Assembly: GCA_034433995.1 (NCBI GenBank)
Contig: DAOTZU010000169.1
Span: 2,109-66,108 of the forward strand
Direction of reading: 5' to 3'
DNA from: Anaerolineae bacterium
GTDB lineage: Bacteria > Chloroflexota > Anaerolineae > UBA1429
Length of the DNA stretch: 64,000 bases
The position numbers were made by a program, and so were the translations under genes. The notes beneath the pieces are model-generated. The model did no database searches. It was not told the origin of the DNA and saw only the letters and a program-made list of their open reading frames with translations. Of this stretch, positions 6,351 to 46,768 are shown piece after piece. Position 1 is the first letter of the stretch. Each line of letters opens with the position of its first letter.

Positions 6351-6367
6351 GGGCGGAGGAGGGCGGC

Positions 6368-6910
6368 TCAGACTGTGGGGACCTGATCGTGGCCATTGCC
6401 CCGGGGGCAGAAATGGCCGCCGGGGTCTATGGGGTTGCCACAGAGGGTACAGATGGGCCGCCCTTGGCCGGCGACCTCCCGGGCCACGCGGCTGAGGGCG
6501 CGCATCTGCCCCAGGCCGGCCCAAAAGCGGGCCACCTGGAGGGGCGGGCCCTCTGCTGCGCCGGTCTCGGCGGCCTCCTGCACCACCAGCACCAGCAGCC
6601 CGCTGGCCTGGTCGAAGGCCAACGCCATCTGTCCCGCGACAAAGGCTGGCTCCACCGGCTGGCGCAGGGCCAGCGCGTCACCGGAGGGCTCCTCCAGGCT
6701 CGAGACGGGGCGCAGTTCCCGCTGCTCCAACTCTTCCAGAATCGTCTCGATGGCCCGGGCCAGGGCCACCACCTGTTCCTTTTCCAGTTTCAGGCTGATC
6801 ATCCGTTCGCCCTGGCTGGCTTGGAGGAAAAAGGTGCGTCGGCCCGGCTGGCCCACCGCTCCGATGGTGATGTGGGAGGTGGGATTAAACTCGTACACTA
6901 CTTCTGACAT
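6368..6910 (-). CDS. DUF3090-family protein (Cys-rich C-terminus)
   Basis: MSEVVYEFNPTSHITIGAVGQPGRRTFFLQASQGERM...PICTLCGNPIDPGGHFCPRGNGH; conserved partner of SCO1664 family. Confidence 0.7.
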   Translation of the reverse strand: MSEVVYEFNPTSHITIGAVGQPGRRTFFLQASQGERMISLKLEKEQVVALARAIETILEELEQRELRPVSSLEEPSGDALALRQPVEPAFVAGQMALAFDQASGLLVLVVQEAAETGAAEGPPLQVARFWAGLGQMRALSRVAREVAGQGRPICTLCGNPIDPGGHFCPRGNGHDQVPTV

Positions 6911-21696: not shown

Positions 21697-21768
21697 ATCT
21701 GATGCGCACATCTTGAAATCCCTCACGGTGTTGCATATGATAGGGGCAACACTTGTGGGGGGAGCGCC

Positions 21769-27007: not shown

Positions 27008-27013
27008 GGTTGG

Positions 27014-28636
27014 ATGCCTGAGCGGATTTTACTTGTGGATGATGAACAAGAGATCGTCGAGTTTGCCGGCCGGGTGCTCCAGCGGCTGGGGTACGAGACC
27101 GTCACGGCCACCTCCGGCGAGGCGGCTTTGGCGCTCCTCTCCCAGGAGCATTTTGACCTGTTGGTCACAGATCTCATGATGCCGGGGATGACGGGGCTGG
27201 AGCTTTTGGCGGCGGCGCGCCAGGCGAACCCTCACCTGGCGACGGTGGTCATCACCGGGTTCGGCAGCGTGGAGATGGCCATCAAGGCCCTGCGGGCCGG
27301 CGCGGGAGATTTTGTCACCAAGCCCTTTGGCATGGCCGATCTCCGCGCCGCCGTGGAGCACGCCCTGGAGCAGGGGCGGCTGTTGCGCGAGAACGCCCGC
27401 CTGCGCGCCCTCTTGCCCCTTTTGGAGCTGAACAAGCAGAGCTTGCGCCAGGATTTGCCGTCGCTCCTGCAGCACCTTGTGGAGATCGCCCAGGAGGAGA
27501 CGGGCGCCGATGGGGCGGCCCTGTTGCTCCTCGGTGAAGACGGCCATACGTACATCGAGGGAAGACTTGGGCTCATCCCCGCAAGTTGCACCGAATGCGA
27601 GAACATTACCCGCAATATGAGTGCCTCCGAAGAGGCGCGTATCTTGAGCCCGCAGGACGCGCCCTCGCCCACGCTGTGCGAGGCGATGCAAGAGCACGGC
27701 ATTGCCTCGCTCATGTGCGTGCCTTTGCGCACCCCCAACCGCTATCTGGGCGTCATGGCGTTGACCAAGGCCGCCGGCCACGAGCTCTTCCGCGAGGCGG
27801 ACCGGGAGTTGGCCTCCATCTTGGGAAGCCAGGCGGCGGCGCTTTTGGAGAACGCCAACCTGGTACAAAAGTTGGGGGCCTGGAACAAGGAGCTGGAGGC
27901 GCGGGTGGAGGAGCGCACCCGCGAGCTTCGCGCCGCCCAGGAGCAGCTCTTGCGCGCCGAACGCCTGGCCACCATCGGCAAGTTCGGCGCCAGCATCGCC
28001 CATGAGTTGCGCAACCCGCTGGGTGTGATCAACAACTCGGTCTATTACCTCAAAACGCGCCTGGGCGAGGCTGATCCCAAGGTTGCCAAGCATCTCCAGA
28101 TCATCGAGCGCGAGGTGGAGGCCGCAAACCGCATCATCACCGATATCATGAACTTTGTGCGTGTCACCGAGGTGCGGATGGAGCCGGTAGATCCGAACGC
28201 GTTGGTGCGCCAAACCCTGGAACGGGCTTTGTTGCCCGATACGGTGCAAGTGCAGTTGGCTCTCACCCCTGATCTGCCTCCTGTACAGGCGGATGCCGAT
28301 AAGATGCACCAGGTCTTTATCAATCTGATCAACAACGCCGTCCAAGCCATGCCCGAGGGCGGAAAGCTCACCATTGCCACGGATCAGCAGAACGGTTGCG
28401 TCCGTTTTAGTTTTAGCGATACCGGCTGCGGCATCCCCGAGGAGAACATGGAGCGCATCTTTGAGCCCTTGTTCACCACCAAGGCCAAAGGGATCGGCCT
28501 GGGGTTGCCGCTGGTGCGGATGTTGGTGGAGGCGCACCGTGGCCAGGTTCAGGTCGCCAGCCGCGTGGGCGAAGGAACCCGCTTCACCGTGTGCTTGCCC
28601 TATCAAGAGCATCATAAGGAGCACCTGACCACATGA
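27014..28636 (+). CDS. hybrid REC-GAF-histidine kinase
   Basis: N-terminal REC; H-box ASIAHELRNPL; HATPase G-boxes. Confidence 0.8.
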   Translation: MPERILLVDDEQEIVEFAGRVLQRLGYETVTATSGEAALALLSQEHFDLLVTDLMMPGMTGLELLAAARQANPHLATVVITGFGSVEMAIKALRAGAGDFVTKPFGMADLRAAVEHALEQGRLLRENARLRALLPLLELNKQSLRQDLPSLLQHLVEIAQEETGADGAALLLLGEDGHTYIEGRLGLIPASCTECENITRNMSASEEARILSPQDAPSPTLCEAMQEHGIASLMCVPLRTPNRYLGVMALTKAAGHELFREADRELASILGSQAAALLENANLVQKLGAWNKELEARVEERTRELRAAQEQLLRAERLATIGKFGASIAHELRNPLGVINNSVYYLKTRLGEADPKVAKHLQIIEREVEAANRIITDIMNFVRVTEVRMEPVDPNALVRQTLERALLPDTVQVQLALTPDLPPVQADADKMHQVFINLINNAVQAMPEGGKLTIATDQQNGCVRFSFSDTGCGIPEENMERIFEPLFTTKAKGIGLGLPLVRMLVEAHRGQVQVASRVGEGTRFTVCLPYQEHHKEHLTT

Positions 28637-29031
28637 CCGACGAACCTGCACGTCCTGCGTTGCTGTTGGTGGTGGATGACGAAGAGGGCATGCGCGATAC
28701 CCTGCTGGACATCTTGGAGGCGTATGACTTTGACGTCGACCAGGCCTGTAACGGCCAAGAGGCGGTGGACAAGGTGAAGCGGCGGCCCTATAACCTGGTG
28801 TTGATGGATGTCAAGATGCCGGTGATGGATGGCCTGATGGCGCTCCATCTCATCAGGACGATCCGCCCCAAGCTGCCGGTGATCCTGATGACCGCCTATG
28901 CCGACACCTTCTCGCTGGATCGGGCCAAGGTGGATGGAGCGACGGCGATCTTTGCCAAGCCCCTCAAGCTGGACGATCTGCTGCGCTTGATCCAAAGCCT
29001 TTTGCCCGTGCAGGGCAGGGGAGGCTGCTGA
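28633..29031 (+). CDS. single-domain response regulator (REC)
   Basis: LLVVDDEEGMRD...VLMDVKMP...ILMTAY; 4-nt overlap with upstream kinase. Confidence 0.8.
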   Translation: MTDEPARPALLLVVDDEEGMRDTLLDILEAYDFDVDQACNGQEAVDKVKRRPYNLVLMDVKMPVMDGLMALHLIRTIRPKLPVILMTAYADTFSLDRAKVDGATAIFAKPLKLDDLLRLIQSLLPVQGRGGC

Positions 29032-29717
29032 TGGCCGCCATCCGCGAGCGCCCATTTTTGGTGGATGAGGCTTTCGGGCAGATCATCCGCCTGGTGGGCC
29101 ACGATTTGCGCAACAAGCTCAGCGTGATGCAGAACTCGACGTACTTTTTGAATATGAAGGTGGGCGGCCAGAATGAGAAACTGGCCAAACACCTGGGCAT
29201 TCTGCTGCGCGAGATCAACCAAAGCAACCGCATCGTGCTCAACTTGATGGACCTGGCCGCGCCCAAGACGCCCAAGCCGGCGCTGGTGGAGCTCAACCCG
29301 CTGATCCAGCAGACCCTGGAACAAGTGCCGCCGCCCGAGGGCGCCATCCTCAAGACCATGCTGGCGGCAGAACTGCCTCCCGTGCAGGCTGATGGGGAAC
29401 AGCTGGGCCGGGCGTTGGAGAACATCCTCCTCTTCCAATATGCCGCCCTCAGGCCGGGCGATACCTTGCGGGTGATCTCGCGCGCCGCCGGCGCCAAGGT
29501 TTATGTGGAGCTGGTGGATAGCGGCCCCGGCCTGGCCAAGGAGCAGGTGGCGCGCCTGTTCGAGCTACAGCCGGGGGAGGGGCCTATCGCGTTGCAGATG
29601 GGCCTGGTGGTGGCCCGTCAATTGATCGCCTTGAACAAGGGCCAGCTTGAGGTGGAGAGCCGCCTGGGCCTGGGCACCCGGTTCAGCATCATTTTGCCCC
29701 TCTCCCCTGCGGGATGA
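29031..29717 (+). CDS. cytoplasmic histidine kinase core (HisKA-like + HATPase)
   Basis: LVGHDLRNKLSVM H-box; C-terminal ATPase GxGLG motifs; start overlaps stop of REC gene. Confidence 0.7.
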   Translation: MAAIRERPFLVDEAFGQIIRLVGHDLRNKLSVMQNSTYFLNMKVGGQNEKLAKHLGILLREINQSNRIVLNLMDLAAPKTPKPALVELNPLIQQTLEQVPPPEGAILKTMLAAELPPVQADGEQLGRALENILLFQYAALRPGDTLRVISRAAGAKVYVELVDSGPGLAKEQVARLFELQPGEGPIALQMGLVVARQLIALNKGQLEVESRLGLGTRFSIILPLSPAG

Positions 29718-29858: not shown

Positions 29859-30989
29859 TCAGGCGGAGCGCAGGAGCTGGCGCACGTGTTCCGGATTATT
29901 GGCCTTGGCCAAGATGTCTTCCAGGGTGACCATGCCGCGACGGTAAAGCTCGATCAGCGCCTGATCTAGGGTCCTCATCCCCAGCCGCTGGCTGGTCTCG
30001 ATGACGCCGGGGAGTTGATGGGTCTTGGCCTCGCGGATGAGATTGCGCACCGCCGGCGAGGCGACCATCACCTCCACCGCTACCACGCGGCCCTTCCCAT
30101 CGGCGGTGGGCAGCAGCGTCTGAGAGAGCACTCCCTCCAGGATCATGGAGAGTTGGATGCGCACCTGTTGTTGCTGGTGCGGCGGAAAGACGTCGATGAT
30201 GCGGTCCACCGTGTTGGCGGCGCCGGCGGTGTGCAGGGTGGAGAGCACCAGGTGGCCCGTCTCGGCGGCGGTGATGGCCGCGGCGATGGTCTCCAGGTCC
30301 CGCATCTCGCCCACCAGGATCACGTCGGGGTCCTGGCGCAAGGCGTGTTTGAGGGCGGAGGCGAAGCTGGGCGTGTCCTCGCCCAGCTCCCGCTGGGTGA
30401 TCATGCTCTGCTTGTCGGTAAAGACGTACTCGATGGGATCTTCGCAGGTGACGATGCGGCAGCGTTGTCGCTCGTTAAGATAGTCAATCATCGCCGCCAG
30501 GGTGGTGGATTTGCCGCTGCCGGTGGGCCCGGTGACGAGGATCAAGCCACGGGGCCGCATGATCAATTCTTTGCACACCGGGGGCAGCAACAAGTCGTCC
30601 AACGTGGGGATGATCATGCTCAGGCGGCGCATGACCATGGTGATGGTGCCCCGTTGTTTGGCCACATTGATGCGAAAGCGGGCCACCCCTTCCAGCTCAT
30701 AGGAGAGATCCAGCTCCAATTCCTGCTCAAAGCGCCGGCGCTGCTCCGGATTGGTCACCTGCTCGTAGAGGCGGGCCAGGTCGGCGGCGCTCAGGGGCTC
30801 GTACTGCGCCTGCACCTGCAGGTCGCCCCGGATGCGCAACACCGGCGGGCTCCCGGCCTTCAGGTGCAGATCTGAGGCGCCCAGGCGCGTCGTCAAGTGC
30901 AAAAGCTCGTCAATGTACACCTCCGCGCTGGGCGTGGGCCGGGCGAAGGTTGTGCGCTGCGTAGGTTGGCGCATGATGGGATCGGACAT
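29859..30989 (-). CDS. pilT: type IV pilus retraction ATPase PilT
   Basis: Walker A GPTGSGKST, PilT-family motifs; start 30989 with GGGGAA upstream. Confidence 0.85.
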   Translation of the reverse strand: MSDPIMRQPTQRTTFARPTPSAEVYIDELLHLTTRLGASDLHLKAGSPPVLRIRGDLQVQAQYEPLSAADLARLYEQVTNPEQRRRFEQELELDLSYELEGVARFRINVAKQRGTITMVMRRLSMIIPTLDDLLLPPVCKELIMRPRGLILVTGPTGSGKSTTLAAMIDYLNERQRCRIVTCEDPIEYVFTDKQSMITQRELGEDTPSFASALKHALRQDPDVILVGEMRDLETIAAAITAAETGHLVLSTLHTAGAANTVDRIIDVFPPHQQQQVRIQLSMILEGVLSQTLLPTADGKGRVVAVEVMVASPAVRNLIREAKTHQLPGVIETSQRLGMRTLDQALIELYRRGMVTLEDILAKANNPEHVRQLLRSA

Positions 30990-31145
30990 GTCCAAATTCC
31001 CCAGATCAGGATGTTGTGCTATCCCCTCGCCTGTAATGGGCCCTGAGGCCAAACAGTCGTTCTCCCCCGCGGTGCGACCAAATCCATGGGCGCGGGACCC
31101 TGCCCGATATATTTGCTCTAGTGAGCCCCTTGTGGGCCGTGGCCT

Positions 31146-31976
31146 CTAACCGGCGAAATACCAGAGCAACAGCCGGCTGCCGTAGAGCATGTACAGGAAG
31201 GTGGTGAGCACCAAAAAGGGCGCAAAAGGGATGGCCGTTTTGCGCCCGGCCAGCCGGGTGATGAGCAGCACGACCCCCACAACCCCTCCCAAAATGAAGG
31301 AGCTGAACACCGCCACCAGCGCCCCCGGAAAGGCGGTGATGAGCCCGGCAAAGGCCGCCAGCTTGACATCGCCGGCCCCCATCCCCTGGGGGGCGATGAG
31401 CCAGATCAGCCAAAAGATGAGAAAGGCGGCCAAGCCTCCCAGCAGCTGGCTCAAGGCCGTCCATTGCGCGATGGACAAACTCGCCATGCCACGGTTGCGT
31501 TGGATCAGCCAAAAGAGGCCCAAGTGGGCGAAGGAAGGCTCCGCCACCAGGGCCTGGATGGGGATGGCCAAAAGGGCCAAGACGATGGCCGGCAAGATGA
31601 CCACGTTCAACACCAATTTGTGCTCCAAGTCGATGACCAGGATGACCAGGAGGAAGCAGGTGTACACCGTGCTCAGCGCCAGTTCCACACTGGGGCCGAA
31701 AAACCAGGCCAGGAAGGCGAAAAGGAGGCCGGTAACCAGTTCCACCAGCAGCACGCGCAAGGGAATGCGCGCCCCGCAGGTGCGGCAACGTCCCCGGAGG
31801 ACGAGATAGCTGACCACAGGCACCAGGTCCCCCGCGGTGAGCTGCCGACCGCACTGGGGACAATGGGAGGGCGGGCGCAGCAGCGATTGCTGGGCGGGCA
31901 GCCGATCCATGACGACGTTCAGGAAGCTGCCCACGATGAGCCCCACCAAGCCATAAAGGGCGCTGAACCACACCAT
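31146..31976 (-). CDS. pilD: prepilin peptidase (A24 family)
   Basis: N-terminal CPxCG Zn-finger-like (HCPQCGRQL...CRTCG), polytopic membrane domain. Confidence 0.85.
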   Translation of the reverse strand: MVWFSALYGLVGLIVGSFLNVVMDRLPAQQSLLRPPSHCPQCGRQLTAGDLVPVVSYLVLRGRCRTCGARIPLRVLLVELVTGLLFAFLAWFFGPSVELALSTVYTCFLLVILVIDLEHKLVLNVVILPAIVLALLAIPIQALVAEPSFAHLGLFWLIQRNRGMASLSIAQWTALSQLLGGLAAFLIFWLIWLIAPQGMGAGDVKLAAFAGLITAFPGALVAVFSSFILGGVVGVVLLITRLAGRKTAIPFAPFLVLTTFLYMLYGSRLLLWYFAG

Positions 31977-31977
31977 G

Positions 31978-32871
31978 CTACACCTTCTTCAGGGCCAGGC
32001 CGAAATTGGTCATGAACTCCATCTCGGGCAATTCCTCCGGGCAGGGAAATGGGGCGACGGCCCGTTCCACGGGGCGGTCAATGGTGGCTTTGAGATAGTC
32101 CCAGGCCTCGCGGGTATTCAGCGAGCGCCCCGCCAAATAGACGGACGTGCTGGGCTGCAACATAGCCTCGCGGTGGCTATCGTTGTAAAAGCGCACCGTC
32201 TGGGTCAGCTCCTCCAACAAGCGTTCGAGCTGGCCCAGGGCATCCAGGCCCTCCTTTTCAAAGGAGAAGGTGCGCATGATGGCCGGCAGATAATCTATGA
32301 CGATGACGATATCCAATAACCCATCCTCCAGGCAGACGATGATCGCCTCCGGTTGGCCTATGGCGCGGATGAGGGCCAACGGTTTGAGGTCCATCACAAA
32401 AGGCGGGATGCCCGCGGCCTGGAGCGCCCGCACCTGGGCCTCAATCATCTCCCTGGGCACCCCCACCACGTAAATGCGCTGTTGGTCGCCCACTCCGGGC
32501 ATGGATTGCCACGCGAGGTAGAGGCTCTCCAAGGAGACGGGCATCTCTTTGCGCGCCTCGCGGGAGATGGCCTCTTCCATCAACGAGGCCTGCAACTTGG
32601 GCAAGGTGAGCAGGCGCGGGATGGAGCGCATGGCGCTCAGGCTCGTGATCACCTGTTTGCGGGGCAGATTGTGGGCGGTAAAGAGGGCATCGAGGATCTT
32701 GCCCATCTCCACGGCGTTGGTGATCAACCCTTCCACCACCAGCCCCGGCGGCAGGTCCACGCTGAGCCAGCGGTCCACCTTGCCGTTGCGCAGGGTGAGC
32801 AGCCGCACATCGGTGGGTTCGATGGCCAGGGTGATCACATCACGGGTTTTGGGCTTGCTGAACAAGGCCAT
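31978..32871 (-). CDS. pilM: type IV pilus assembly protein PilM (actin-like ATPase fold)
   Basis: MALFSKPK...ITLAIEPTDVRLL N-terminus typical of PilM; GGAAGGA RBS. Confidence 0.8.
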   Translation of the reverse strand: MALFSKPKTRDVITLAIEPTDVRLLTLRNGKVDRWLSVDLPPGLVVEGLITNAVEMGKILDALFTAHNLPRKQVITSLSAMRSIPRLLTLPKLQASLMEEAISREARKEMPVSLESLYLAWQSMPGVGDQQRIYVVGVPREMIEAQVRALQAAGIPPFVMDLKPLALIRAIGQPEAIIVCLEDGLLDIVIVIDYLPAIMRTFSFEKEGLDALGQLERLLEELTQTVRFYNDSHREAMLQPSTSVYLAGRSLNTREAWDYLKATIDRPVERAVAPFPCPEELPEMEFMTNFGLALKKV

Positions 32872-32914
32872 GTGCGTTTCCTTCCCCAGGGCTAGGGGCA
32901 TCCCTGCGCCGATT

Positions 32915-34162
32915 TCAAGGGATGCGCAGCCTCATGCCCACGGTGATGCGCGAGCTGGTCAGACCGTTGGCCGCCATGAGGGCCGCCACGGTGGTGCCGA
33001 AGCGTTGGGCGATACTGAACAGGGTATCGCCGGCCTGCACGATATAGATCCTCCCGGGCAGGAGCGGCCCTCCGGGTAGGCCGCCCGGCCACAGCGGCGG
33101 GCTGCCCGCCCAGCCGGCCGGCGGGATGATCAAGCGCTGGTACACATAAAGGCTGTAGGTGGTCAAGCCGTTGGCCAACATGAGCAGGGCGACGGTGGTG
33201 TTGTAGCGTTGGGCGATGGTGTAAAGCGTCTCGCCGGGCATGACCACATGGATCAGGATGTCCGATTGCATGACGGTGGGGATGAACAGCGCCCGGTAAG
33301 CGCGGATGCTGGTGCCAGTCAACCCGTTGGCCGCCATGATGGCCCAGACTGTGGTATTGTACTGGCGGGCGATGGAGTAGAGGGTCTCGCCCGGCTGGAC
33401 GATGTGCACTAATGGCCCCGGTGCCGGGATGCCGCTGGCGGGGATCCAGATCACCGCGCCGGCGCGCAAGAAATAGGTCATCATCCCGTTGGCCTGCATG
33501 ATGGCTTGGACGGTGGTGTTGTAGCGCTTGGCCAGGCTATAGAGCGTATCGCCGGGTTGGACGGTGTAGGTGATGGGCTGGGAGAGGGTGCGTGGCGTGG
33601 GGGTGGGCGTGCTCGGTCCCGGTGTGATGGTGAGGGGGGGCGTGGAGGTGGCGGTGGGCGTGCCCGGCACCGGCGTGGTGCAATACCGCGCCACCAAATC
33701 AAGGCCCATGAGGGCCTCCTCGCCGGTGGGCCTGAGGGACCAAGCCTGGCGGAATTGCTCCAACGACTCGGTGCACTTGTTCTCCGTCAACAGCTTGTAG
33801 CCATAGTTGACATGGGCATAGTAGCGCTTGGCCTGGATGTCGTCATAGTTGGGGTCAATGGCGATGATCTGGCCGATGAGGTTCAACACTTGGGGCCAAT
33901 CCTGGGCGTTCCAGGCGGCGTCGAGCTGCTGCGCCAGGGCTTGCAGGCGCTGCTCGTTGGTGGGCGTGGCCGTGGCCACTTGCAAGGGGTGAAGGGGCAG
34001 TCCCTGGGGCTGCCCTCCCTCGGCTGCCGGCGGTTGGGCGCCGAGGCTCGCCCGCGCCGCCGGCGGCAGCCGGCCGGCCAACGTCCCTTGGGGCAAGAGG
34101 CCGCCGAGAAGGGCCAAGATCAGCAACGCCCTGCCCAAACGTGTCCATCGTCGCCTGCTCAT
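32915..34162 (-). CDS. secreted protein with TPR-like N-region and four LysM peptidoglycan-binding domains
   Basis: Signal peptide; four repeats of YTVQPGDTLYSIAxRYNTTV...ANGL. Confidence 0.75.
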   Translation of the reverse strand: MSRRRWTRLGRALLILALLGGLLPQGTLAGRLPPAARASLGAQPPAAEGGQPQGLPLHPLQVATATPTNEQRLQALAQQLDAAWNAQDWPQVLNLIGQIIAIDPNYDDIQAKRYYAHVNYGYKLLTENKCTESLEQFRQAWSLRPTGEEALMGLDLVARYCTTPVPGTPTATSTPPLTITPGPSTPTPTPRTLSQPITYTVQPGDTLYSLAKRYNTTVQAIMQANGMMTYFLRAGAVIWIPASGIPAPGPLVHIVQPGETLYSIARQYNTTVWAIMAANGLTGTSIRAYRALFIPTVMQSDILIHVVMPGETLYTIAQRYNTTVALLMLANGLTTYSLYVYQRLIIPPAGWAGSPPLWPGGLPGGPLLPGRIYIVQAGDTLFSIAQRFGTTVAALMAANGLTSSRITVGMRLRIP

Positions 34163-34174
34163 CTTTTCGCCCTC

Positions 34175-35317
34175 TTATCTTGGAATCACCAGCCGCTGAC
34201 CCACATATACGGTGGTGCTGCGCAGATCGTTGGCGCGCATGATGGCGCTGACCGTGGTATGGTAGCGGCTGGCGATGGACCACAAGGTATCTCCGGGCCG
34301 CACCACATGGATCAGCACCTCAGGCGTGGGGGTTTTGGTGGGCCCGGCGGTGGGGGAAGGTTTGGCCGTCTGCCCCGGCCGGGTGATGGTGGGCCGCGCC
34401 GCGGGGAGGGTCGGCGTCCCCTGAAGGCCGCGCAACAGCGTCAAGGCCTCCTGGCCGTTGGGCACCAAACGGAGGGCGGCCTCGAAGCGTTGTTGCGCCT
34501 CGGCGCGCCGGCCCTTGGCGGCCAGCTCGCGCCCCCAAGCGAGGTATACCTGATAGAGCTGATACGTCACCTCTTGGTGTTCCGGCTCCTCCTGCAAAAG
34601 GCGCTCCCCCTGGGCCGCCGCGGCCGGCCAATCCTGGGCCGCGATGGCGGCCTGGAAGGATTCCATCAGGCTACCTTGTTGTGCCGGCGTGGCGGTGGGG
34701 GCAGGACTGGGCGTCCCCTGGGCCGGCGCCGGTAGGGTGCCCCGCTCGATGGAATAGACCGCCAGGTCCACATTCCCCGTGAAGGGCCCATCGGGTTTGA
34801 CGATGAGGTTATCCAGCAAAAAGGTCTTGAACGGCCCATCGGCCAGGCGCGCCAAAAAGCGCAACAGCCCCGGCACCTCCCCCCGCGCCTCCACCAGAAA
34901 GCGCTGTACGTTATAGGCCTTCTCGGCCTCCTCCTCCGGCGTCTTGAGCAATGGCTCCAGCCGCGCCAGCCGCACGCCGAAGGTGCTGGCGTATTGGTAA
35001 TACTGGGCCATCTCATCGGCCACCTGTTGCCCGGTGGGCCAACCCGTGGTCAACTGCTGCAGTTGCTGTTGGGCCGCGCCCAGGCGCTGGCGCAGCGTCT
35101 CGGGGGCGGCGGCCTGGACGCGTTGAATCTGGGCGATGGCCTCTTGGGCGGTGTCGTACTCGCTCTGGGCCTCGCTCCGCCGCGAGATGGCACGCACCAG
35201 CGCGCTGAACACCACACCGGAGAGGACCAGTGCCACGATGAGGCTGAGGACGGCTCCCACCACCAGCGGGTTCTTGATCTTGAAGCGCCGAAAAAGATCC
35301 TTGACGTCGGTGTTCAT
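34175..35317 (-). CDS. PilO-like pilus assembly membrane protein with C-terminal TPR-like region and LysM domain
   Basis: Single TM (LVVGAVLSLIVALVL), coiled-coil, PilO-like core, C-terminal LysM (HVVRPGDTLWSIASRYHTTV); ATGA start/stop overlap with upstream giant gene. Confidence 0.5.
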   Translation of the reverse strand: MNTDVKDLFRRFKIKNPLVVGAVLSLIVALVLSGVVFSALVRAISRRSEAQSEYDTAQEAIAQIQRVQAAAPETLRQRLGAAQQQLQQLTTGWPTGQQVADEMAQYYQYASTFGVRLARLEPLLKTPEEEAEKAYNVQRFLVEARGEVPGLLRFLARLADGPFKTFLLDNLIVKPDGPFTGNVDLAVYSIERGTLPAPAQGTPSPAPTATPAQQGSLMESFQAAIAAQDWPAAAAQGERLLQEEPEHQEVTYQLYQVYLAWGRELAAKGRRAEAQQRFEAALRLVPNGQEALTLLRGLQGTPTLPAARPTITRPGQTAKPSPTAGPTKTPTPEVLIHVVRPGDTLWSIASRYHTTVSAIMRANDLRSTTVYVGQRLVIPR

Positions 35318-39385: not shown

Positions 39386-40543
39386 TTAGCGGGTGATGAA
39401 CCAGGAGAGGAGCTGCATGGCCCCGTCCTCGCAAAGGCGCACCCGCGCCCGGGTGATGGTGCCGCCGGCGGTGGCTTCGATGTCGAAATCCTTGCAGCCC
39501 TCGTCCTCGCCGGCCATGGGGGGCGGCTGTATGGTGAGCCCCTCGCCGCAGAGATCCACCGAATCGCCCACAAAGGCGCCGGCCATGGCGCCGGAACCGC
39601 TCACGCGGATCATCCCGTTGGGGGCATAAACGTAACCCCGCACCATGGAGACGCCGCTCCCGCTGATCTGGATCACCGGCTGGGAGCAACGCGCCGAGCC
39701 GGTGTAGGCCGCCGGCGTGAAAAAGGCCAGATTATCCACATAGGGATGCAGGTCATAGCCGGAGCCGATGATTTCGATGGTGCCCAAGGCCACAAAGGTG
39801 GCCGTGCCGCTGAAGCTGTTGCCGTTGATCTTTAGATTGCCGGTGATATAGTACAGCCCGTCAAAGACGGTGCCGCTTTCGTTGACCGTATAGTTGCCCT
39901 CGATCCGGTGGTAGCGGCCCTCTTGTTGGGCAGCGTAGGCTGCCGTGCCCACAGCGTTGGGGTTGTTGTAATCATCGAGGGTGAACAACGGGGGCAAGAT
40001 CGTCACCGGCACCTGAATGGGGCTGGCCGGCGGGGGCGGGTTAAAGGTCACTTGGCCCTCGCCGCTGACCTCGGTGACGTACTCGACGATGCCGTTGATG
40101 ATGGTATCGGCCCCGCGGATGCGCATATCCCGGTTGGTGTGGACGTTGCCGTACAGCCGGTTATGGGCGCCCGTCCAATCCAACACGGAGGAACAGGTGG
40201 TGCTGTTGCCCCACAGAGTATAGTTGAAGGACCAAGAAACGGGCGCCACGCGCAGGGTGACCGGTAACCGGTTGACCGTGTCGGGCAGGGTCAGCTGCAC
40301 GCCTGAGGCGCCGCTCTGCTTCACCGTCTCGCGCCAGGCGGCATCGTGGCGCAGTCGCCAGAGGGCGTATTCCGCCCCCGCCTCGGAGGCGTACTGGGCG
40401 TGGAGCGCTCCCTCGTGGCGCAGGGTGGCCTTTTGCGCCGTGGCCACATGGCCCAAAAGGGGCACCAGGAGCAACGTCCCCACCATCAGGGCCACCAGCG
40501 CGTGGGGCAACGTGTTTCCCTGTTCCCTCGCGAGAGACGTCAT
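39386..40543 (-). CDS. pilus-associated protein, PilX/TadG-like N-terminus with GSG-repeat beta-rich C-domain (paralog 2)
   Basis: N-terminal TM, conserved YASEAGAEYALWRLRHDAAWRE block, repeated I(S/T)GSG motifs; ATGA overlap with upstream paralog. Confidence 0.5.
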   Translation of the reverse strand: MTSLAREQGNTLPHALVALMVGTLLLVPLLGHVATAQKATLRHEGALHAQYASEAGAEYALWRLRHDAAWRETVKQSGASGVQLTLPDTVNRLPVTLRVAPVSWSFNYTLWGNSTTCSSVLDWTGAHNRLYGNVHTNRDMRIRGADTIINGIVEYVTEVSGEGQVTFNPPPPASPIQVPVTILPPLFTLDDYNNPNAVGTAAYAAQQEGRYHRIEGNYTVNESGTVFDGLYYITGNLKINGNSFSGTATFVALGTIEIIGSGYDLHPYVDNLAFFTPAAYTGSARCSQPVIQISGSGVSMVRGYVYAPNGMIRVSGSGAMAGAFVGDSVDLCGEGLTIQPPPMAGEDEGCKDFDIEATAGGTITRARVRLCEDGAMQLLSWFITR

Positions 40544-41742
40544 GATGAGCCCACCTGCCAGGAGAGCACCTGCCAATCGCCGTCGCCGCACCCTCGCATC
40601 CGCACTGTCGTGACCGTCGAGCCGGAGGTGGACCGGATGTCATAGACGCCACAGACGATGCTGCTGCCGCCGCTGCCCGGCAGTTCCACCTCGGCCAGGT
40701 TGATGGTGGCCCCCGAACCGTTGATATCGATCTCGTTGCCCAAGAAGGCGCCGGTGATCACCCCGCCGGAGCCGGTGAGAGAGATCTTGCCATTGGGGGC
40801 AAAGACCGTCCCGCCGGTGTTGCCCGAACCGCTGATGCTGACCACGTTGGTGCTGGCCGCGCGGGTGCTGAAAAAGCTCAGGCCGGGCACGTAGGGCGTG
40901 AAATCCAGCCCCGAGCCGCTGACATCGATGGTGGACAAGGAGACCACGGTCACATTGTATCCCCGCAGGCCCGAGCCGGAAAAGTTGACTTTGCCGGTGC
41001 AATAGTGCAGACCCTCCGGGATCACCGTGCCGGAGCCGGTGATGTTCCATGTGCCATTATGGACGTAATATTTCCCCTCGGCCTGGGCTCGGGCTGCCCA
41101 GCTGCCGGGTTGGTTGGGATCGTTGAACTCGTTGATATCCCAGGTGATGGGAAAAGGCTGGACGGTGGTCTGCACGGCCGGGCCCGGCACGATGCGGTTG
41201 CCCGAACCCAAAATGGTCAGGTTGCGCACATATTCCGCTGTGCCGTAGATGGTGTGGCCCGAACCGTTGATCTTGAGATCGCGGTTGCTGTGCACGCCGC
41301 CGTTGACGGTGTGCCCCGATCCGCCGATGACCAAGCCGTTGGTGGCGGTGCTGCTCTGGGCCCAGAGGGCCCATTCCAGGCATTCTGGCTCGCCGCCCCC
41401 GCCGCCAGCCTGGGTCTCGGTCTCGACGCACACCACCTCCACGGTGGGGGTATCTCCGTTGGGGGCGCTGGGCAGGGTCAAGGAGGCCACGGTGCCCGGC
41501 TGGTCCAGCAGAGTTTGCCGCCAAGCCGCGTCGTGGACCAGCTTCCAGAGGGCGAATTCCACGCCGGCATCGCTGGAATATTGCCGCTGCAGGGTGGTCT
41601 GGGTTGCCGCCGTCGTCTTCAGGCTGGTGCTCAGATGGGCCAGGAGCGGCCCGATCAAAATGATCCCCGTGGCTAAGGCGAGCAAGGCCAGGGGCAAGGA
41701 CTCGCCGCGTTCCTCTTGCCGGAATGTTGCTCTGTGCTTCAT
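40540..41742 (-). CDS. pilus-associated protein, PilX/TadG-like (paralog 1)
   Basis: Collinear similarity to 39386..40543 product (YSSDAGVEFALWKLVHDAAWRQ; GSG repeats); GAGGGAG RBS. Confidence 0.5.
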   Translation of the reverse strand: MKHRATFRQEERGESLPLALLALATGIILIGPLLAHLSTSLKTTAATQTTLQRQYSSDAGVEFALWKLVHDAAWRQTLLDQPGTVASLTLPSAPNGDTPTVEVVCVETETQAGGGGGEPECLEWALWAQSSTATNGLVIGGSGHTVNGGVHSNRDLKINGSGHTIYGTAEYVRNLTILGSGNRIVPGPAVQTTVQPFPITWDINEFNDPNQPGSWAARAQAEGKYYVHNGTWNITGSGTVIPEGLHYCTGKVNFSGSGLRGYNVTVVSLSTIDVSGSGLDFTPYVPGLSFFSTRAASTNVVSISGSGNTGGTVFAPNGKISLTGSGGVITGAFLGNEIDINGSGATINLAEVELPGSGGSSIVCGVYDIRSTSGSTVTTVRMRGCGDGDWQVLSWQVGSS

Positions 41743-41755
41743 GGGAAGATCTCCC

Positions 41756-42274
41756 TCACTGGGAAAGGCGCCGGGTGATGGTCAGCGTCATGCTGCGGCT
41801 GCCCCGGCGGGCCAGGGCGCTGGTCAAGGTGATGCGCACGGTGGTGCTGATCTGGGTCCCTTGCAGCGGCTCGATCTGCCAGGAGCTGATGTGCCGGGCC
41901 ACGGTGACCGAGCTGCTCCCGCCCGCGCCCGAGGTGGTGCGCACCAAATTGCCCCCCACCAGGCTGTAGGTGACGGTGGTGACCTGCGCCGATCCCGTTT
42001 GTCCAAAGGGGTAGGAGGGGATGTTCAGAGTCAATGTGGTGCCGTCAAAAGTGCCCTCCGAGGCGCCCACCACATCCCGGTTGAGGAGCACGCCGGCGGT
42101 CTGGAGCTGTTGGCTCAGCGTCAGCGAGTCCTGCTGCAGGCGGGTGAGGTTGTTAAATTGATACAGCATCACCACCAACGCCCCCAGGAGCAGCGCCGTG
42201 ATGGCGGTGGAGATCATGGTCTCCACCAGGGTGAATCCGTTTTGGCCCGTGCCGAGGAGCAAGCGCTTTTTCAT
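41756..42274 (-). CDS. prepilin-type N-terminal cleavage/methylation domain protein (minor pilin-like)
   Basis: GFTLVETMISTAITALLLGALVVML class-III signal peptide. Confidence 0.7.
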   Translation of the reverse strand: MKKRLLLGTGQNGFTLVETMISTAITALLLGALVVMLYQFNNLTRLQQDSLTLSQQLQTAGVLLNRDVVGASEGTFDGTTLTLNIPSYPFGQTGSAQVTTVTYSLVGGNLVRTTSGAGGSSSVTVARHISSWQIEPLQGTQISTTVRITLTSALARRGSRSMTLTITRRLSQ

Positions 42275-42675
42275 GGCCGATCCACCTTGTAATCCTCTAA
42301 GGCAAAGAGCAACTTGCCGTTTTCATAGACCTTGACCAGGATCTTTTGCATCCCGTTATCCGTGGCCGGCGGCGAACCGGAGAAGGTCTGGGTGGCCGAG
42401 AGCCAGTAGGTCACCTCCACCGAATGGGTGTAGAGGCTGGAGGGTTGGATGGTGGGGTACGGCTGGGCCGTCGGGTTGGCCCGATACTCGGCCTGTTTGA
42501 TCAGCTCCATCTGCTGCCGGGCATAGTTTTCGGCGCTGATGCGCTCTTCCACCAAAGCCACGCTCCCGCTGGAGGTGGAAAGCCCGCTGAGCATGATGAG
42601 GAGCGCCGCGCCGACGATGGCCAGCGTCACCAAGTCGCCCACCAGAGAACCGCCCCGTTGATCTTGTAACATCAT
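42271..42675 (-). CDS. pilin/pseudopilin-like protein with hydrophobic N-terminal helix
   Basis: ORF 42271..42795; start MMLQDQRGGSLVGDLVTLAIVGAALLIM at 42675 with AAGGTGG RBS. Confidence 0.6.
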   Translation of the reverse strand: MMLQDQRGGSLVGDLVTLAIVGAALLIMLSGLSTSSGSVALVEERISAENYARQQMELIKQAEYRANPTAQPYPTIQPSSLYTHSVEVTYWLSATQTFSGSPPATDNGMQKILVKVYENGKLLFALEDYKVDRP

Positions 42676-42802
42676 GGGAACCACCTTCTTGCTTATAAAA
42701 CCACCCGCAAAAACGCCGGTTTTTGTCGTCCAGCGCCCGCGAGGGGCTGGGCACCCGGCGGACCGCAAGACCTGTGCCCGCCGGATGCGCCCCAAAAGCG
42801 GG

Positions 42803-44005
42803 TTACTTGATCGAACCCATGAGCGAGTACATGGGCATGATCACCGCCACAGCCACAAAGCCCACCACCGCGCCGATAAAGAGGGTGAGGGCCGGCTCCA
42901 CCGCCCCGGCCATGGCCGCCACGGCCCGGTCCACCTCCTCTTCGTAAAAGATGGCCAGGGTCTCCATGTTGGAATCCAGGGCGCCGGTCTCTTCGCCCAC
43001 CCGCACCATCTGCACCAGCATCCCCGGAAAGATCTTTTGCTGGGCTAAAGGATCGGCCAGGCCGCGGCCCTGCAAAAGGTCGCGGCGCACGCCCTCCAAG
43101 GCGGCCCTGATGACCCGGTTGCTCTGGGTGCGGATGATCATCTCGATGATCTCCGGCAGGGCCAACCCCGCCCGCAGCAGGGCGGACATGGAGCGACACA
43201 TCCGCGCCACCGCCCCTTGGATCGTCACCCGTTTGATGAGGGGGATCTTGAGCAAGGCCCGGTCAAAGAACCAATGCCCTGCCTCCGAGCGGAAGAAAAG
43301 CACCCCCGCGCTGCCCACCAGCACCAGCGTGCCCAGGAGATGGAACTTGTAGGTGGAGGCGAAATCGGTGATGGCGATGAGGATGCGGGTGGGCAGGGGT
43401 AACTCCGCGCCGAAGGAGGTGAACAGGCCCATCAGGGGCGGCAGGGCCACGGTGAGCATCAAAAAGACCACGCCCACCGCCAACAAAAGCACAAAGGAGG
43501 GATAGGCCATGGCGCTGCGGATCTTGCGCACCAGGGCCTCTTCTTTCTCCATGTAAATGGCCAGTTGCCGCAGCACCATCTCCAAATTACCGGTGCGCTC
43601 GCCCACCTCGATCAACCGAGCATAGAGGTTGGAAAAGATCTTTTTGTGTTTCGAGATGGCCTCGGAGAGGAAACGGCCCTGCTGCAGGTCGAGGATGATC
43701 TCGCCCAACACCTGGCGCAGACGCTTGTTGCTGGTCTGTTCCTGCAACAGTTGGATGGCGCGAACGATGGGGATGCCCGATTCGATCAGTGTGGCCAATT
43801 GCCGGGAAAAGATGATCAGATCCCGGGTGCGCACCTTGGGGCTGAACAAGGAGACCCCGCCGTTTGTCTCCTGGGTCTCCTTGAGAGAGATGATGGTATA
43901 GTTCAGCTTCCACAGGAGCTCCTCGGCCACTTTCTCCGAGGCCGCCTCGATGCGGCCTTGGATCATTTCTCCTTTAGGCGTATACGCGATGTAATGGTAT
44001 GCCAT
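42803..44005 (-). CDS. pilC: type IV pilus inner-membrane platform protein PilC (GspF family)
   Basis: Two GspF-type repeats; start MAYHYIAYTPKGE at 44005. Confidence 0.85.
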   Translation of the reverse strand: MAYHYIAYTPKGEMIQGRIEAASEKVAEELLWKLNYTIISLKETQETNGGVSLFSPKVRTRDLIIFSRQLATLIESGIPIVRAIQLLQEQTSNKRLRQVLGEIILDLQQGRFLSEAISKHKKIFSNLYARLIEVGERTGNLEMVLRQLAIYMEKEEALVRKIRSAMAYPSFVLLLAVGVVFLMLTVALPPLMGLFTSFGAELPLPTRILIAITDFASTYKFHLLGTLVLVGSAGVLFFRSEAGHWFFDRALLKIPLIKRVTIQGAVARMCRSMSALLRAGLALPEIIEMIIRTQSNRVIRAALEGVRRDLLQGRGLADPLAQQKIFPGMLVQMVRVGEETGALDSNMETLAIFYEEEVDRAVAAMAGAVEPALTLFIGAVVGFVAVAVIMPMYSLMGSIK

Positions 44006-44019
44006 GGTCACCCACTCCC

Positions 44020-45930
44020 TCAACTCATGGTAAAGACGCCCCTCAAAATCTCTGAGGGCGTGGTGATGCCCATTTTGACCTTGACCATGCCGTCGTAGGG
44101 CATGCTCTTCATCCCCATGGCCTCGGCGGCGCGGCGCAGGTCGCCCGAGTTGGCCCCCTGCAACACCAGGCGGCGCAGCTCGTCGTTCATCATCAAGAGC
44201 TCAAAGACGCCCACCCGCCCGCGATAGCCCGTCTCGGCGCAATAGTTGCAGCCTGTGCCGTATTCAAAGTGGGTGCGGTGTTCGCCCAGTTGCTGCTCAT
44301 AGGCCGTGATCTCGGGCAGGGTCGCCTCTTTGACGGCGCGACACTGGTTGCACACCCGCCGCACCAGCCGCTGGGAGAGCACGGCCAAGAGCGACGAGGT
44401 GAGGAGGAACGGCTCCACCCCAAGGTCAATCAGGCGAAAGATGGCGCCCACGGTGTCGTTGGCGTGGATGGAGGAAAAGACCAGGTGGCCCGTCAGCGAG
44501 GCCTGCACCGCCGTCTTGGCCGTCTCTTGGTCGCGGATCTCGCCCACCAGGATGACGTCGGGGTCCAAGCGCATCGCCGCCCGCAGCCCGCTGGCGAAGG
44601 TGATCTCCGCCTGGCGGTTCACCTGCACCTGGTTGATCCCCTCAAAACGGTATTCCACCGGGTCCTCGATGGTGATGATCTTGAGCACCGTCTTATCCAG
44701 CTGGTTCAAGCTGGCATAGAGGGTGCTGGTCTTGCCGGAGCCGGTGGGACCGGCGATGAGCACGATGCCCCAGGGCGAATGAATCAGGCGGTTCCAGTTC
44801 TGCTCCATCTCGGGCAAAAAGCCCAGCTCGCTCAAGCCCCGCACCGAGATGGATTTATCCAGCACGCGCATGACCACCATCTCCCCCTTGACGGTGCTGA
44901 TGGTGGCCACGCGGATATCCACGGATTTTCCCTCCACCGTGATGGAGAATTGCCCATCTTGCGGGCGGCGCCGCTCGGCGATGTTGAGGTTGGCCAAAAC
45001 TTTGATCCGCGAGACGATGGGCGCGTGCACCCGCAACGGCAGCCGCATGGCATCGTGCAAGACGCCATCGATGCGGTAGCGGATCCGGAGATGGTCCTCC
45101 TGGGGCTCGATATGGATATCGGAGGCCTTGTCCTTCACCGCCTGGGTGATCATGAGCTCCACGGCCCGCACCACCGGCGCCTGCGAGACCAGTTCGGCGG
45201 TGAGGCGTTGGCTGGTTTTATCCTCCGTCTCGCTGGGGGGCGGCGCGATGCGCTCGATGTGGCGATCGATCTCGGTCGTCGCCTGATAATAGTTGGTAAA
45301 GGCGTTTTGGATATCGGCCGGCGAGGCGCGCAGTGTCTTGATCTTTAATCCCGTGCGGATGCGCAGGTCCTCAATGGCCAGCAGGTTGGTGGGGTCCGTC
45401 ATGGCCACCAACAATTGCCCTTGCTCCACCTTGAGCGGCAACAGGCTGTACTTGCGGGCCAGCTCCTCCGGCACCAGTTTCACCGCTTCGGGATCCACCT
45501 GGTAACGCTTCAGGTCAATGATGGGCAGGGAGACCAGGTCGCGGTGTTTGCGTTCGATCAGCTCGATGACGGCGTTGACGTCAAAGGGCTTGTACAAAAC
45601 GCCATCCACGCCGGCCCAGAGGGCCTCGGAGACGTACCCCTCCAATTGGCTGTGGCCGGTCATGATGATGGTGATCACATTGGGATTGATGGCCTTGATC
45701 TGGCGCAGCGTCTCCACGCCGTTCATCCCCGGCATCATGATGTCGATGAGGATGAGGTCGTAGGAGGCCTTTTTCATCAGCTCCAGGGCGGTCTTGCCGT
45801 CCTGGGCGCTGCCCACGCTAAAGCCCCGATCCTCCAGGATATCCACCAGGGTCTCGCACATCCCGGGGTCGTCATCCACGATGAGCACGCTCAATTGTTT
45901 TTGTTGGACGGCAACCGTTTCCTCGGTCAT
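44020..45930 (-). CDS. pilB: type IV pilus assembly ATPase PilB (GspE family) with N-terminal response-regulator receiver domain
   Basis: REC block LSVLIVDDDPGMCET...LILIDIMMPGMNG; GspE N-domain; Walker A GPTGSGKT; tetracysteine CNQC...CNYC; start could also be 45969. Confidence 0.85.
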   Translation of the reverse strand: MTEETVAVQQKQLSVLIVDDDPGMCETLVDILEDRGFSVGSAQDGKTALELMKKASYDLILIDIMMPGMNGVETLRQIKAINPNVITIIMTGHSQLEGYVSEALWAGVDGVLYKPFDVNAVIELIERKHRDLVSLPIIDLKRYQVDPEAVKLVPEELARKYSLLPLKVEQGQLLVAMTDPTNLLAIEDLRIRTGLKIKTLRASPADIQNAFTNYYQATTEIDRHIERIAPPPSETEDKTSQRLTAELVSQAPVVRAVELMITQAVKDKASDIHIEPQEDHLRIRYRIDGVLHDAMRLPLRVHAPIVSRIKVLANLNIAERRRPQDGQFSITVEGKSVDIRVATISTVKGEMVVMRVLDKSISVRGLSELGFLPEMEQNWNRLIHSPWGIVLIAGPTGSGKTSTLYASLNQLDKTVLKIITIEDPVEYRFEGINQVQVNRQAEITFASGLRAAMRLDPDVILVGEIRDQETAKTAVQASLTGHLVFSSIHANDTVGAIFRLIDLGVEPFLLTSSLLAVLSQRLVRRVCNQCRAVKEATLPEITAYEQQLGEHRTHFEYGTGCNYCAETGYRGRVGVFELLMMNDELRRLVLQGANSGDLRRAAEAMGMKSMPYDGMVKVKMGITTPSEILRGVFTMS

Positions 45931-46429
45931 GGTCTCATCTCGATGGACATTAAAGGCTATACCGGCCATGGGCCTTGCCGGCTAACGAAATCTAACAGTT
46001 TCTGCTCTTATCATACCGGATCGTGGGCGGCGGGGCATAAAAAGTACATTAATCCAGCGCTTTTGGCGCGGGGAGGGGGCTAAATTTGGCCTAAAGGAGA
46101 ACACACCCGCTTCGCCCTCGGCGCTCGGAGGTATCCCCAGAAAGATGCCGGGGCTGCGCCTGGCGGGTGGCGCGCCACCGCCGTGGCGCGCTCGCGGATT
46201 TACGCTTCATTTACCCCACTTTGACCCACGCTTTACGGATGCCTATAGGGGCTGTGCTATGATGTGGCCAGAATAAGCTCAGGATAGACGACGATAGCAT
46301 CGCAGCAGCAGTGAGGCCAGCAGGCAAGGAGGTAAGGAGGCAAGATCAGAAGACGAGGTCAGAGTTGCGGCACATGGCAATGCGTGTGGCATCGGGCATT
46401 ATTCTTAGCACTAAACGGAGGTAACGAAA

Positions 46430-46768
46430 ATGCGTAAGCAGCAAGGTTTCACCCTGATCGAACTGTTGATCGTCTTGGCCATCCTCGGCATCCTCATCGG
46501 CATCGTGGCCATGAGCGTGGGCGGCCTGAACCAGACGGCCAAGAGCCGGGGCATGAACTCGGAGAAAGAGATCGTCCAGACGGCCATCGACACCTACAAC
46601 ACCCAAGACGTGACGGTGGAGGGCTCGGCCACCATCCCCGCGCGGGCAACGGCGGCCACCATCGGCACGGCGGATACGGATGCTCCCTTCGCCAAGTATC
46701 TGAAGCGCGCCACCAAGTACAAGTACACCTGGGCCGCGGGTGGGGACACCTTGGTGGTCTCTGAATAA
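46430..46768 (+). CDS. pilA: type IV major pilin PilA
   Basis: MRKQQGFTLIELLIVLAILGILIGIV prepilin leader plus N-methyl-Phe motif; RBS GGAGG. Confidence 0.8.
   Translation: MRKQQGFTLIELLIVLAILGILIGIVAMSVGGLNQTAKSRGMNSEKEIVQTAIDTYNTQDVTVEGSATIPARATAATIGTADTDAPFAKYLKRATKYKYTWAAGGDTLVVSE

Follow-up and report, generated by a model that had tools for sequence, protein, structure and literature searches.

Two LysM-bearing genes within a type IVa pilus operon

The window analysed here is a 64,000-nucleotide stretch of contig DAOTZU010000169.1 from an Anaerolineae bacterium, with a G+C content of approximately 64%. Positions 32915–35317 of the window hold exactly two genes, both on the minus strand and encoding proteins of 380 and 415 amino acids (aa). 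The two genes lie inside a tightly packed operon for a type IVa pilus (T4aP), which reads, in the order of transcription, PilB, PilC, four minor-pilin or PilX-like genes, PilN, PilO-TPR-LysM, TPR-4xLysM, PilM, PilD, and PilT (TPR, tetratricopeptide repeat; Table 1). On balance, it is rather probable that both genes encode peptidoglycan-anchoring parts of a secretin-less, retractile T4aP machine in a monoderm, Anaerolineae-type bacterium. A first-pass annotation of this DNA had described a protein in the PilO position that ends in a LysM domain, followed by an exported protein with four LysM repeats behind a TPR-like region. Both descriptions hold: in a Pfam LysM scan the two proteins score well above the threshold (68 and 214 bits in total, respectively, against a cut-off of 20.9), and since these scores lie far beyond chance, the observation is real.

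The start of pilO is placed at the ATG at 35317, because all homologues begin with MNTD and the stop codon of pilN overlaps this ATG. Hydropathy places a transmembrane (TM) helix at about residues 17–40, and in the AlphaFold2 (AF2) model a long coiled-coil helix continues to residue 90. The helices (H) and strands (E) of the model, namely H17–90, H96–112, E115–123, E136–146, H148–159, E166–174, and E179–189, fit a bitopic protein with a coiled coil and a 2×(α-β-β) ferredoxin-like core. Beyond the core, the model contains a disordered linker rich in Pro, Thr, and Ala, five TPR-type helices, a disordered Pro/Thr linker (residues 299–333), and one complete PF01476 LysM domain.

In Foldseek searches, the top match of the core in the PDB is Pseudomonas aeruginosa PilO (2rjz; E 4.7e-4, TM-score on target 0.62), with Myxococcus PilO (3jc8_Oa) next, and the LysM domain matches the Thermus thermophilus NlpC/P60 LysM structure 4uz2. 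At the sequence level, the window protein misses the Pfam PilO threshold (PF04350; 15 bits, E 0.028, cut-off 22), which is passed by three of six close relatives (best E 7.9e-7) and by 29 of 140 representatives of its subfamily. A PilO-core sequence profile compared with solved structures returned nothing significant (best E 0.05, a JetA coiled coil; PilN 3jc8_Na, E 0.98), and PilO was recovered solely through the comparison of folds, the profile search of solved structures having missed it. The PilO identity assumed in the first-pass annotation is nevertheless accepted on the basis of fold, topology, relatives, and the position of the gene directly after a pilN that itself exceeds its Pfam cut-off.

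The neighbouring 415-aa protein contains four complete PF01476 domains (E 1.3e-64). Every LysM copy in both proteins covers profile positions 1–43 and is predicted by AF2 to adopt a β-α-α-β fold. The model of the 415-aa protein, built with 56 homologues, reaches a mean predicted local distance difference test (pLDDT) score of 80.9. Its N-terminus forms a hydrophobic, signal-peptide-like helix and a disordered stretch, after which a TPR-like domain equivalent to about 2.5 TPR repeats is connected through a 34-aa Pro/Thr linker to the four LysM domains, arranged like beads. No Cys was seen in the signal region when the sequence was inspected by eye, so that a lipobox is absent, and hydropathy gave no internal TM helix or hydrophobic segment. 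In the 56-sequence alignment, C130 and C161 of the TPR-like domain are invariant or nearly so, which would fit a putative extracytoplasmic disulfide. The structural neighbours found with Foldseek are bacterial and eukaryotic LysM proteins as well as generic TPR domains, such as that of YbgF/CpoB.

In NCBIfam, no curated family fits either protein, and all matches run through LysM alone with scores far below the cut-offs. The only families matched are LysM-bearing wall enzymes or activators (DipM, ActS, MltD, and LytF-type), the TPR is a typical protein-recruitment module, and the passage of type IV pili (T4P) through thick peptidoglycan is acknowledged as an open matter (PMC6916266). The two proteins might thus be scaffolds that recruit or activate a peptidoglycan hydrolase, which would open a local gap for the pilus in the manner of LysM-bearing amidase activators, rather than static anchors. 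However, no hydrolase domain was found in either protein or elsewhere in the operon, and the family scores are too low to point to such an enzyme; a hydrolase scaffold is therefore considered distinctly unlikely, and anchoring to the wall is preferred.

Paralogy and conservation of the LysM genes

Residues 216–380 of PilO are collinear with residues 75–241 of the 415-aa protein in an alignment that takes in TPR, linker, and first LysM (31% identity, E 4e-20), and the TPR-LysM tail of PilO and the N-terminal half of its neighbour are therefore paralogous modules. The two proteins differ in how they are conserved: the 4xLysM gene is the conserved part of the pair, and the LysM on PilO is the variable part.

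The conservation of the 4xLysM gene was followed in two samplings. The first was anchored on PilM and comprised 17 metagenome loci with 46–97% PilM identity, of which 14 had usable sequence upstream of pilM; these loci were annotated with custom hidden Markov models for LysM, the PilO core, and PilM. In 12 of the 14, an open reading frame (ORF) with three or four LysM domains lies immediately upstream of pilM, and an ORF with the PilO core precedes it wherever the contig extends far enough. The cassette of giant PilN, PilO, 3–4xLysM, PilM, PilD, and PilT is conserved down to 46–65% PilM identity, and the same cassette is found in loci L004, L006–L009, L030, and L031. In the second sampling, anchored on the LysM protein, six of eight loci (L004, L007, L008, L009, L030, and L031) have the 4xLysM gene between pilO and pilM, and all six also carry a giant PilN (957–1123 aa), PilO, PilM, PilD, PilT, and a pilin. 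The gene is thus present in most homologous pilus loci, and with the LysM scores above threshold as well, neither of the refuting outcomes named in the first-pass annotation occurred. In addition, over 100 full-length homologues share 50–70% identity with the 415-aa protein, and those that are named come from metagenome-assembled genomes (MAGs) of Anaerolineae, Anaerolineales, or Chloroflexota.

The PilO-TPR-LysM protein has few close relatives. Among GTDB representative genomes, in which the clade is sparsely represented, a single related locus was found (L006, a Chloroflexota MAG, 42% identity). A search with the PilO-core profile against 1.84 billion cluster representatives matched 1034 proteins at E <= 1e-3, and the named members of the sampled clusters all belong to Anaerolineae, Anaerolineales, or Litorilinea. 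LysM is present on 69 of the 150 best representatives (one copy in 64 and two copies in 5), always at the extreme C-terminus. In the Pfam annotation, which covered 140 of these 150, LysM was matched in 62 and TPR_2 in 37, alongside the 29 with PilO. LysM is therefore fused to this PilO subfamily often, as a frequent but optional addition; PilO proteins of 215–329 aa in other related loci are devoid of it.

The operon and its surroundings

The stop codon of pilN and the start codon of pilO overlap as ATGA, and the neighbouring gaps of 12–13 nt carry Shine-Dalgarno-like motifs, including a GAGGG in the 12-nt gap between pilO and the 4xLysM gene. The coupling of the two LysM genes to the remainder of the operon is accordingly tight. 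All the parts of a type IVa pilus are present, namely PilB, PilC, PilM, PilN, PilO, the prepilin peptidase, N-methyl pilins, and PilT, and because PilT exceeds its NCBIfam cut-off, the system is regarded as a retractile type IVa system. The ORFs scanned in the window gave no match to a secretin family, and neither did the flanks of the related loci. This is as expected for a monoderm, since T4aP loci have been reported in 340 of 3,780 Chloroflexota genomes, none of them with a secretin (PMC12488501).

The PilN of the window is about five to six times the usual size. Its cytoplasmic N-terminus contains the INLLP-like motif IDLNILPP and is followed by one TM helix, the PilN core, and eight repeats of approximately 115–150 aa each, which open with a GDAYExDD-like motif and weakly match the pre-peptidase C-terminal (PPC) domain. 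Such a giant PilN could span a thick, multilayered envelope. At its N-terminus, the PilB protein has a response-regulator receiver domain, and this implies that pilus extension is controlled through phosphorylation; the domain is also kept in the related loci L004, L030, and L031. In L004, a SpoVS-family gene (6231–6512 of that locus) is inserted between the minor-pilin genes and pilN, and no such gene occurs in the window.

Table 1. Features of the pilus locus, with positions in the window and the evidence for each
Feature	Position	Strand	Evidence
PilB extension ATPase with N-terminal receiver domain	44020..45969	-	TIGR02538 E 7.8e-163; response-regulator matches aa 23-146; L004 orthologue
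PilC platform protein	42803..44023	-	L004 orthologue matches Pfam T2SSF
Four genes for minor pilins or PilX-like proteins (174 aa; 172 aa, N_methyl; 400 and 401 aa, DUF7305)	39386..42795	-	
Giant PilN, 1344 aa	35314..39348	-	PF05137 24.9 bits (cut-off 22.8); PF04151
PilO-TPR-LysM protein, 380 aa	34175..35317	-	LysM by Pfam; PilO by fold, topology, relatives, position
PilO ferredoxin-like core, aa 96-189	34751..35032	-	AF2 and Foldseek
PilO TPR module (two TPR repeats), aa 212-298	34424..34684	-	Profile against consensus TPR structures E 7.7e-16; AF2 helices
PilO C-terminal LysM, aa 337-379	34181..34309	-	PF01476 E 5.2e-19; Foldseek to 4uz2
Exported TPR-4xLysM protein, 415 aa	32915..34162	-	Pfam LysM x4; AF2 TPR-like domain
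TPR-like five-helix domain, aa 67-161	33680..33964	-	AF2 pLDDT >92 (aa 69-160); Foldseek YbgF/CpoB TPR 2xev and others
LysM 1, aa 197-241	33440..33574	-	Pfam, AF2
LysM 2, aa 251-295	33278..33412	-	Pfam, AF2
LysM 3, aa 303-347	33122..33256	-	Pfam, AF2
LysM 4, aa 372-415	32918..33049	-	Pfam, AF2
PilM, likely start 32871	31978..32901	-	PF11104 44.6 bits; TIGR01175 E 2.9e-16; alignment
PilD prepilin peptidase	31146..31976	-	Corresponding L001 gene matches Pfam A24_N_bact and Peptidase_A24
PilT retraction ATPase	29859..31052	-	TIGR01420 480 bits (cut-off 319)
Candidate major pilin, 112 aa, divergently transcribed	46430..46768	+	PF07963 N_methyl E 8.6e-12

Beside the candidate major pilin gene, on the minus strand (46831–48891), lies a gene for a 686-aa homologue of TMEM260/PMT-like protein O-mannosyltransferases. 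As a speculation, O-glycosylation could target the linkers rich in Pro/Thr that occur in PilO, in the 4xLysM protein, and in PilN. Downstream of pilT, on the opposite strand (25493–29717, plus), a group of signalling genes encodes a REC-GAF-HD-GYP protein, which is likely a cyclic di-GMP phosphodiesterase, together with a single-domain receiver and two histidine kinases, one of the REC-GAF type and one short. In locus L008, the pil cluster is preceded by a comparable REC-GAF-HD gene.

Further from the pilus genes, the ORF at 50032–51657 (minus strand) fuses an N6/N4 DNA methylase to an Mrr-type restriction endonuclease domain in a stretch with a G+C fraction of 0.59, compared with about 0.64 for the window, and may be a mobile restriction-modification element. 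A 756-aa ORF at 51791–54061 (minus strand) joins a CofD-like 2-phospho-L-lactate transferase domain to a complete four-domain phosphoglucomutase/phosphomannomutase, which is an unusual fusion. The 1160-aa ORF at 19354–22836 (minus strand) has no Pfam match, and its G+C fractions at the first and third codon positions (GC1 0.80 and GC3 0.69) are atypical, with a GC3 of about 0.85 in its neighbours; either the ORF is no genuine gene or its product is of low complexity.

Proposed anchoring of the pilus machine to the cell wall

Bacterial LysM domains are mostly peptidoglycan binders, and from this knowledge of the family the LysM domains of both proteins would be expected to bind peptidoglycan. 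In the proposed arrangement, the extracytoplasmic core of the bitopic PilO would pair with PilN, and the flexible Pro/Thr-rich linkers past this core would carry the TPR module and the single LysM, which would grip the glycan strands of the peptidoglycan. The exported 415-aa protein would bind the wall multivalently through its four LysM domains. Its conserved TPR domain, with W89, Y106, Y114, Y120, and F137 on the conserved face, may offer a surface to which the PilN/PilO assembly, or the protein itself, could dock. The two proteins would in this way fix the membrane platform of PilM, PilN, PilO, and PilC to the sacculus where the filament crosses, take up the load when PilT drives retraction, and mark the place of crossing. 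Such a load-bearing or guiding role and the docking through TPR modules are both inferences.

Several observations weigh against this reading. LysM domains also bind chitin-like and other N-acetylglucosamine (GlcNAc) glycans. The AF2 model of PilO is of moderate confidence (pLDDT 69.7), having been built on a shallow alignment of nine sequences. Among the close relatives, PilO is without LysM in L006, P0008, and L030, the L006 protein having kept its TPR. In L022 and L025, the two exceptions among the PilM-anchored loci, PilO stands directly before PilM with no LysM in the contig sequence examined. Finally, L027 (8001–9281) and L028 (8001–9299) encode full-length relatives of the TPR-4xLysM protein (43–44% identity) with no pil genes within 8 kb, and it is chiefly on these two loci that a possible function of the protein outside the pilus rests. 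Of the 150 best representatives of the PilO subfamily, 81 are without LysM. Overall, the interpretation given in the first-pass annotation is partly supported.

The L027 and L028 genes lead to an alternative in which the TPR-4xLysM protein is a general wall protein of Anaerolineae, for instance an organiser of the envelope or septum, whose gene lies among the pil genes through an accident of history, the PilO fusion alone being specific to the pilus. The family is very abundant, with far more homologues than were found for the PilO-LysM protein, and well conserved, which agrees with such a role. Also in its favour, the L027/L028 gene sits between HEAT_2 and PP-binding/NTP_transf_3 genes, which likewise border the pil cluster in L008, L009, L030, and L031; this suggests that the pil genes were lost in place and the LysM gene was kept. 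Two observations argue against an accidental association: in nearly all pil loci sampled, the gene sits between pilO and pilM and is set off by gaps of about 12 nt, and the half of its product made up of TPR, linker, and LysM is a paralogue of the PilO tail. A general wall protein is thus judged unlikely, and a part in the pilus machine is retained for the 4xLysM protein.

The nature of the bound glycan may be questioned as well. The LysM domains might recognise a glycan other than peptidoglycan, such as a GlcNAc polymer associated with a sheath or S-layer, or a glycosylated pilin, and so tie the machine to an outer envelope layer. The structural neighbours of the domains include the chitin-binding LysM proteins Ecp6 and CEBiP, the PMT/TMEM260-like glycosyltransferase gene adjoins the pilin gene, and Chloroflexota can have multilayered envelopes (PMC13319060). 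However, the closest LysM structures, 4uz2 and 4uz3, belong to a bacterial peptidoglycan endopeptidase (43–55% identity), in line with the general preference of bacterial LysM domains stated above, and a glycan of this kind appears very improbable as the ligand compared with the peptidoglycan assumed in the proposed arrangement.

How a T4P machine crosses a thick wall and braces itself against it when the cell has no outer membrane is a question acknowledged to be open (PMC6916266). The present loci offer concrete and conserved candidates for the parts concerned: a PilO that often bears a LysM, a dedicated TPR-4xLysM protein between pilO and pilM, and a roughly five-fold enlarged PilN with repeats of a β-sandwich (PPC-like) type. 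With such candidates, the question becomes testable in cultivable Anaerolineae.

Comparison with known systems

In the pilMNOPQ operons of diderm bacteria, PilP and PilQ occupy the gene position right after pilO and presumably link PilN and PilO to the next envelope layer, as is proposed for the 415-aa protein. The likeness ends with the position, since no homology exists: the 415-aa protein has neither the β-sandwich nor the lipobox of PilP, nor a secretin domain, and its predicted fold consists of an α-helical TPR domain and LysM. PilP is a lipoprotein whose β-sandwich domain binds PilN/PilO and PilQ N0; a PilP identity was rejected, given the lack of a PilP match, the lack of Cys in the signal region, and the helical TPR and LysM fold. 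The pilotins PilF, PilW, and Tgl, TPR lipoproteins of the outer membrane that secretin assembly requires, were rejected as well, because no lipobox was seen by eye, the TPR-like domain has only about 2.5 repeats, and no secretin was found. The first-pass annotation had gone further and suggested a wall-anchored collar in place of the secretin complex. The LysM proteins are indeed present, and neither the window nor the flanks of related loci yielded a secretin, but nothing supports a ring or collar, a geometry that would be conjectural for these proteins, or a structural replacement of PilQ. A wider reading, in which the giant PilN, PilO-TPR-LysM, and TPR-4xLysM build a wall-spanning, peptidoglycan-anchored conduit, is doubtful. 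Such a conduit would do in a monoderm what the PilP/PilQ/TsaP envelope complex does in diderms, and it would be a class of T4P envelope assembly not described before, part of which Litorilinea aerophila would later have borrowed for its archaellum.

TsaP contains one LysM domain together with FlgT-like domains and surrounds the PilQ secretin. The window proteins resemble TsaP of Neisseria and Myxococcus as LysM accessory proteins that would link a type IVa machine to peptidoglycan, the function of TsaP in diderm bacteria being to anchor the T4P machine to this layer (cited in PMC13319060). They differ in having no FlgT-like domain and no secretin partner found, in combining TPR with up to four LysM domains, and in being encoded inside the pilN-pilO-pilM operon. 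A TsaP identity was rejected, since Pfam and NCBIfam give only LysM and TPR and no secretin was found among the window ORFs scanned.

FimV of Pseudomonas is another T4P-associated protein that combines LysM with TPR motifs and, like TsaP, links a diderm T4P machine to peptidoglycan. In this large protein of the inner membrane, which promotes the assembly of the secretin, the LysM is periplasmic, the TPRs are cytoplasmic, and an internal TM helix and a C-terminal FimV motif are present. In the window proteins, by contrast, both the TPR and the LysM domains are extracytoplasmic, and the 415-aa protein has no internal TM helix. A FimV identity was rejected on the grounds that no internal hydrophobic segment exists, that the TPR is N-terminal to LysM on the same side of the membrane, and that no FimV model matched.

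Among monoderm T4aP systems, PilO of Firmicutes (PilO/PilH of Streptococcus sanguinis) likewise has a PilO-like N-terminal part and a large C-terminal extra part (PMC6916266). Pelicic (2019) noted this enlargement of monoderm PilO and put forward, as a speculation, that the added portion ties the machine to peptidoglycan or aids the filament in crossing it (PMC6916266). In S. sanguinis, compared here by description only, the extra part has no assigned function (PMC6916266), whereas the extension in the window is a recognisable TPR-LysM module.

The literature on a LysM component of Anaerolineae or Chloroflexota T4P consists, in a search that left subscription journals outside its reach, of the L. 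aerophila papers only. In this species, a PilO-LysM fusion beside the archaellum locus has been proposed to bind peptidoglycan directly and so anchor the archaellum to it, such a gene being found near the archaellum in just 3 of 244 archaellated Chloroflexota, and pilM, pilP, and pilQ are reported to be absent from the organism as a whole (PMC12488501, PMC13319060). The PilO-LysM fusion is therefore already known, from annotation and from two papers. Three features appear to be undescribed: the TPR-4xLysM protein as a conserved member of the operon, the paralogy of this protein to the PilO tail, and the frequent fusion of LysM to members of the PilO subfamily. A search that most subscription journals lay outside yielded no account of a TPR-4xLysM component encoded in such an operon, nor of a giant PilN.

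The L. aerophila protein (WP_141610923.1, named "type 4a pilus biogenesis protein PilO" by NCBI) is one of the PilO-subfamily representatives recovered here (PilO-core profile E 1.4e-31; Pfam PilO 22.5 bits). It directly follows pilN and contains the PilO core, TPR, Pro/Thr linker, and C-terminal LysM, collinear with the window protein. At 570 aa it is longer, however, having two copies each of the TPR module and the LysM domain, and is only 25–38% identical to the window PilO. Its locus encodes a short PilN (208 aa) and archaellum genes, and contains no pilM, pilB/C/T, or 4xLysM gene in the sequence examined. An origin of the window in L. aerophila, considered in view of a similar G+C content and the published PilO-LysM, was rejected on account of this low identity and the archaellum character of the locus. 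The PilO-TPR-2xLysM genes of the published L. aerophila locus (L032, 9378–11713) and of L029 (850–2379) both stand beside archaellum-type clusters with archaellins, a KaiC-like ATPase, T2SSE, and T2SSF; L029, with PilD immediately upstream, looks like a second example of the gene on the archaellum side. Since the subfamily of the L. aerophila PilO-LysM also occurs in complete T4aP operons, the present loci fit the proposal that the archaellum recruited PilO-LysM, and the complete T4aP operon is probably the native context of the fusion.

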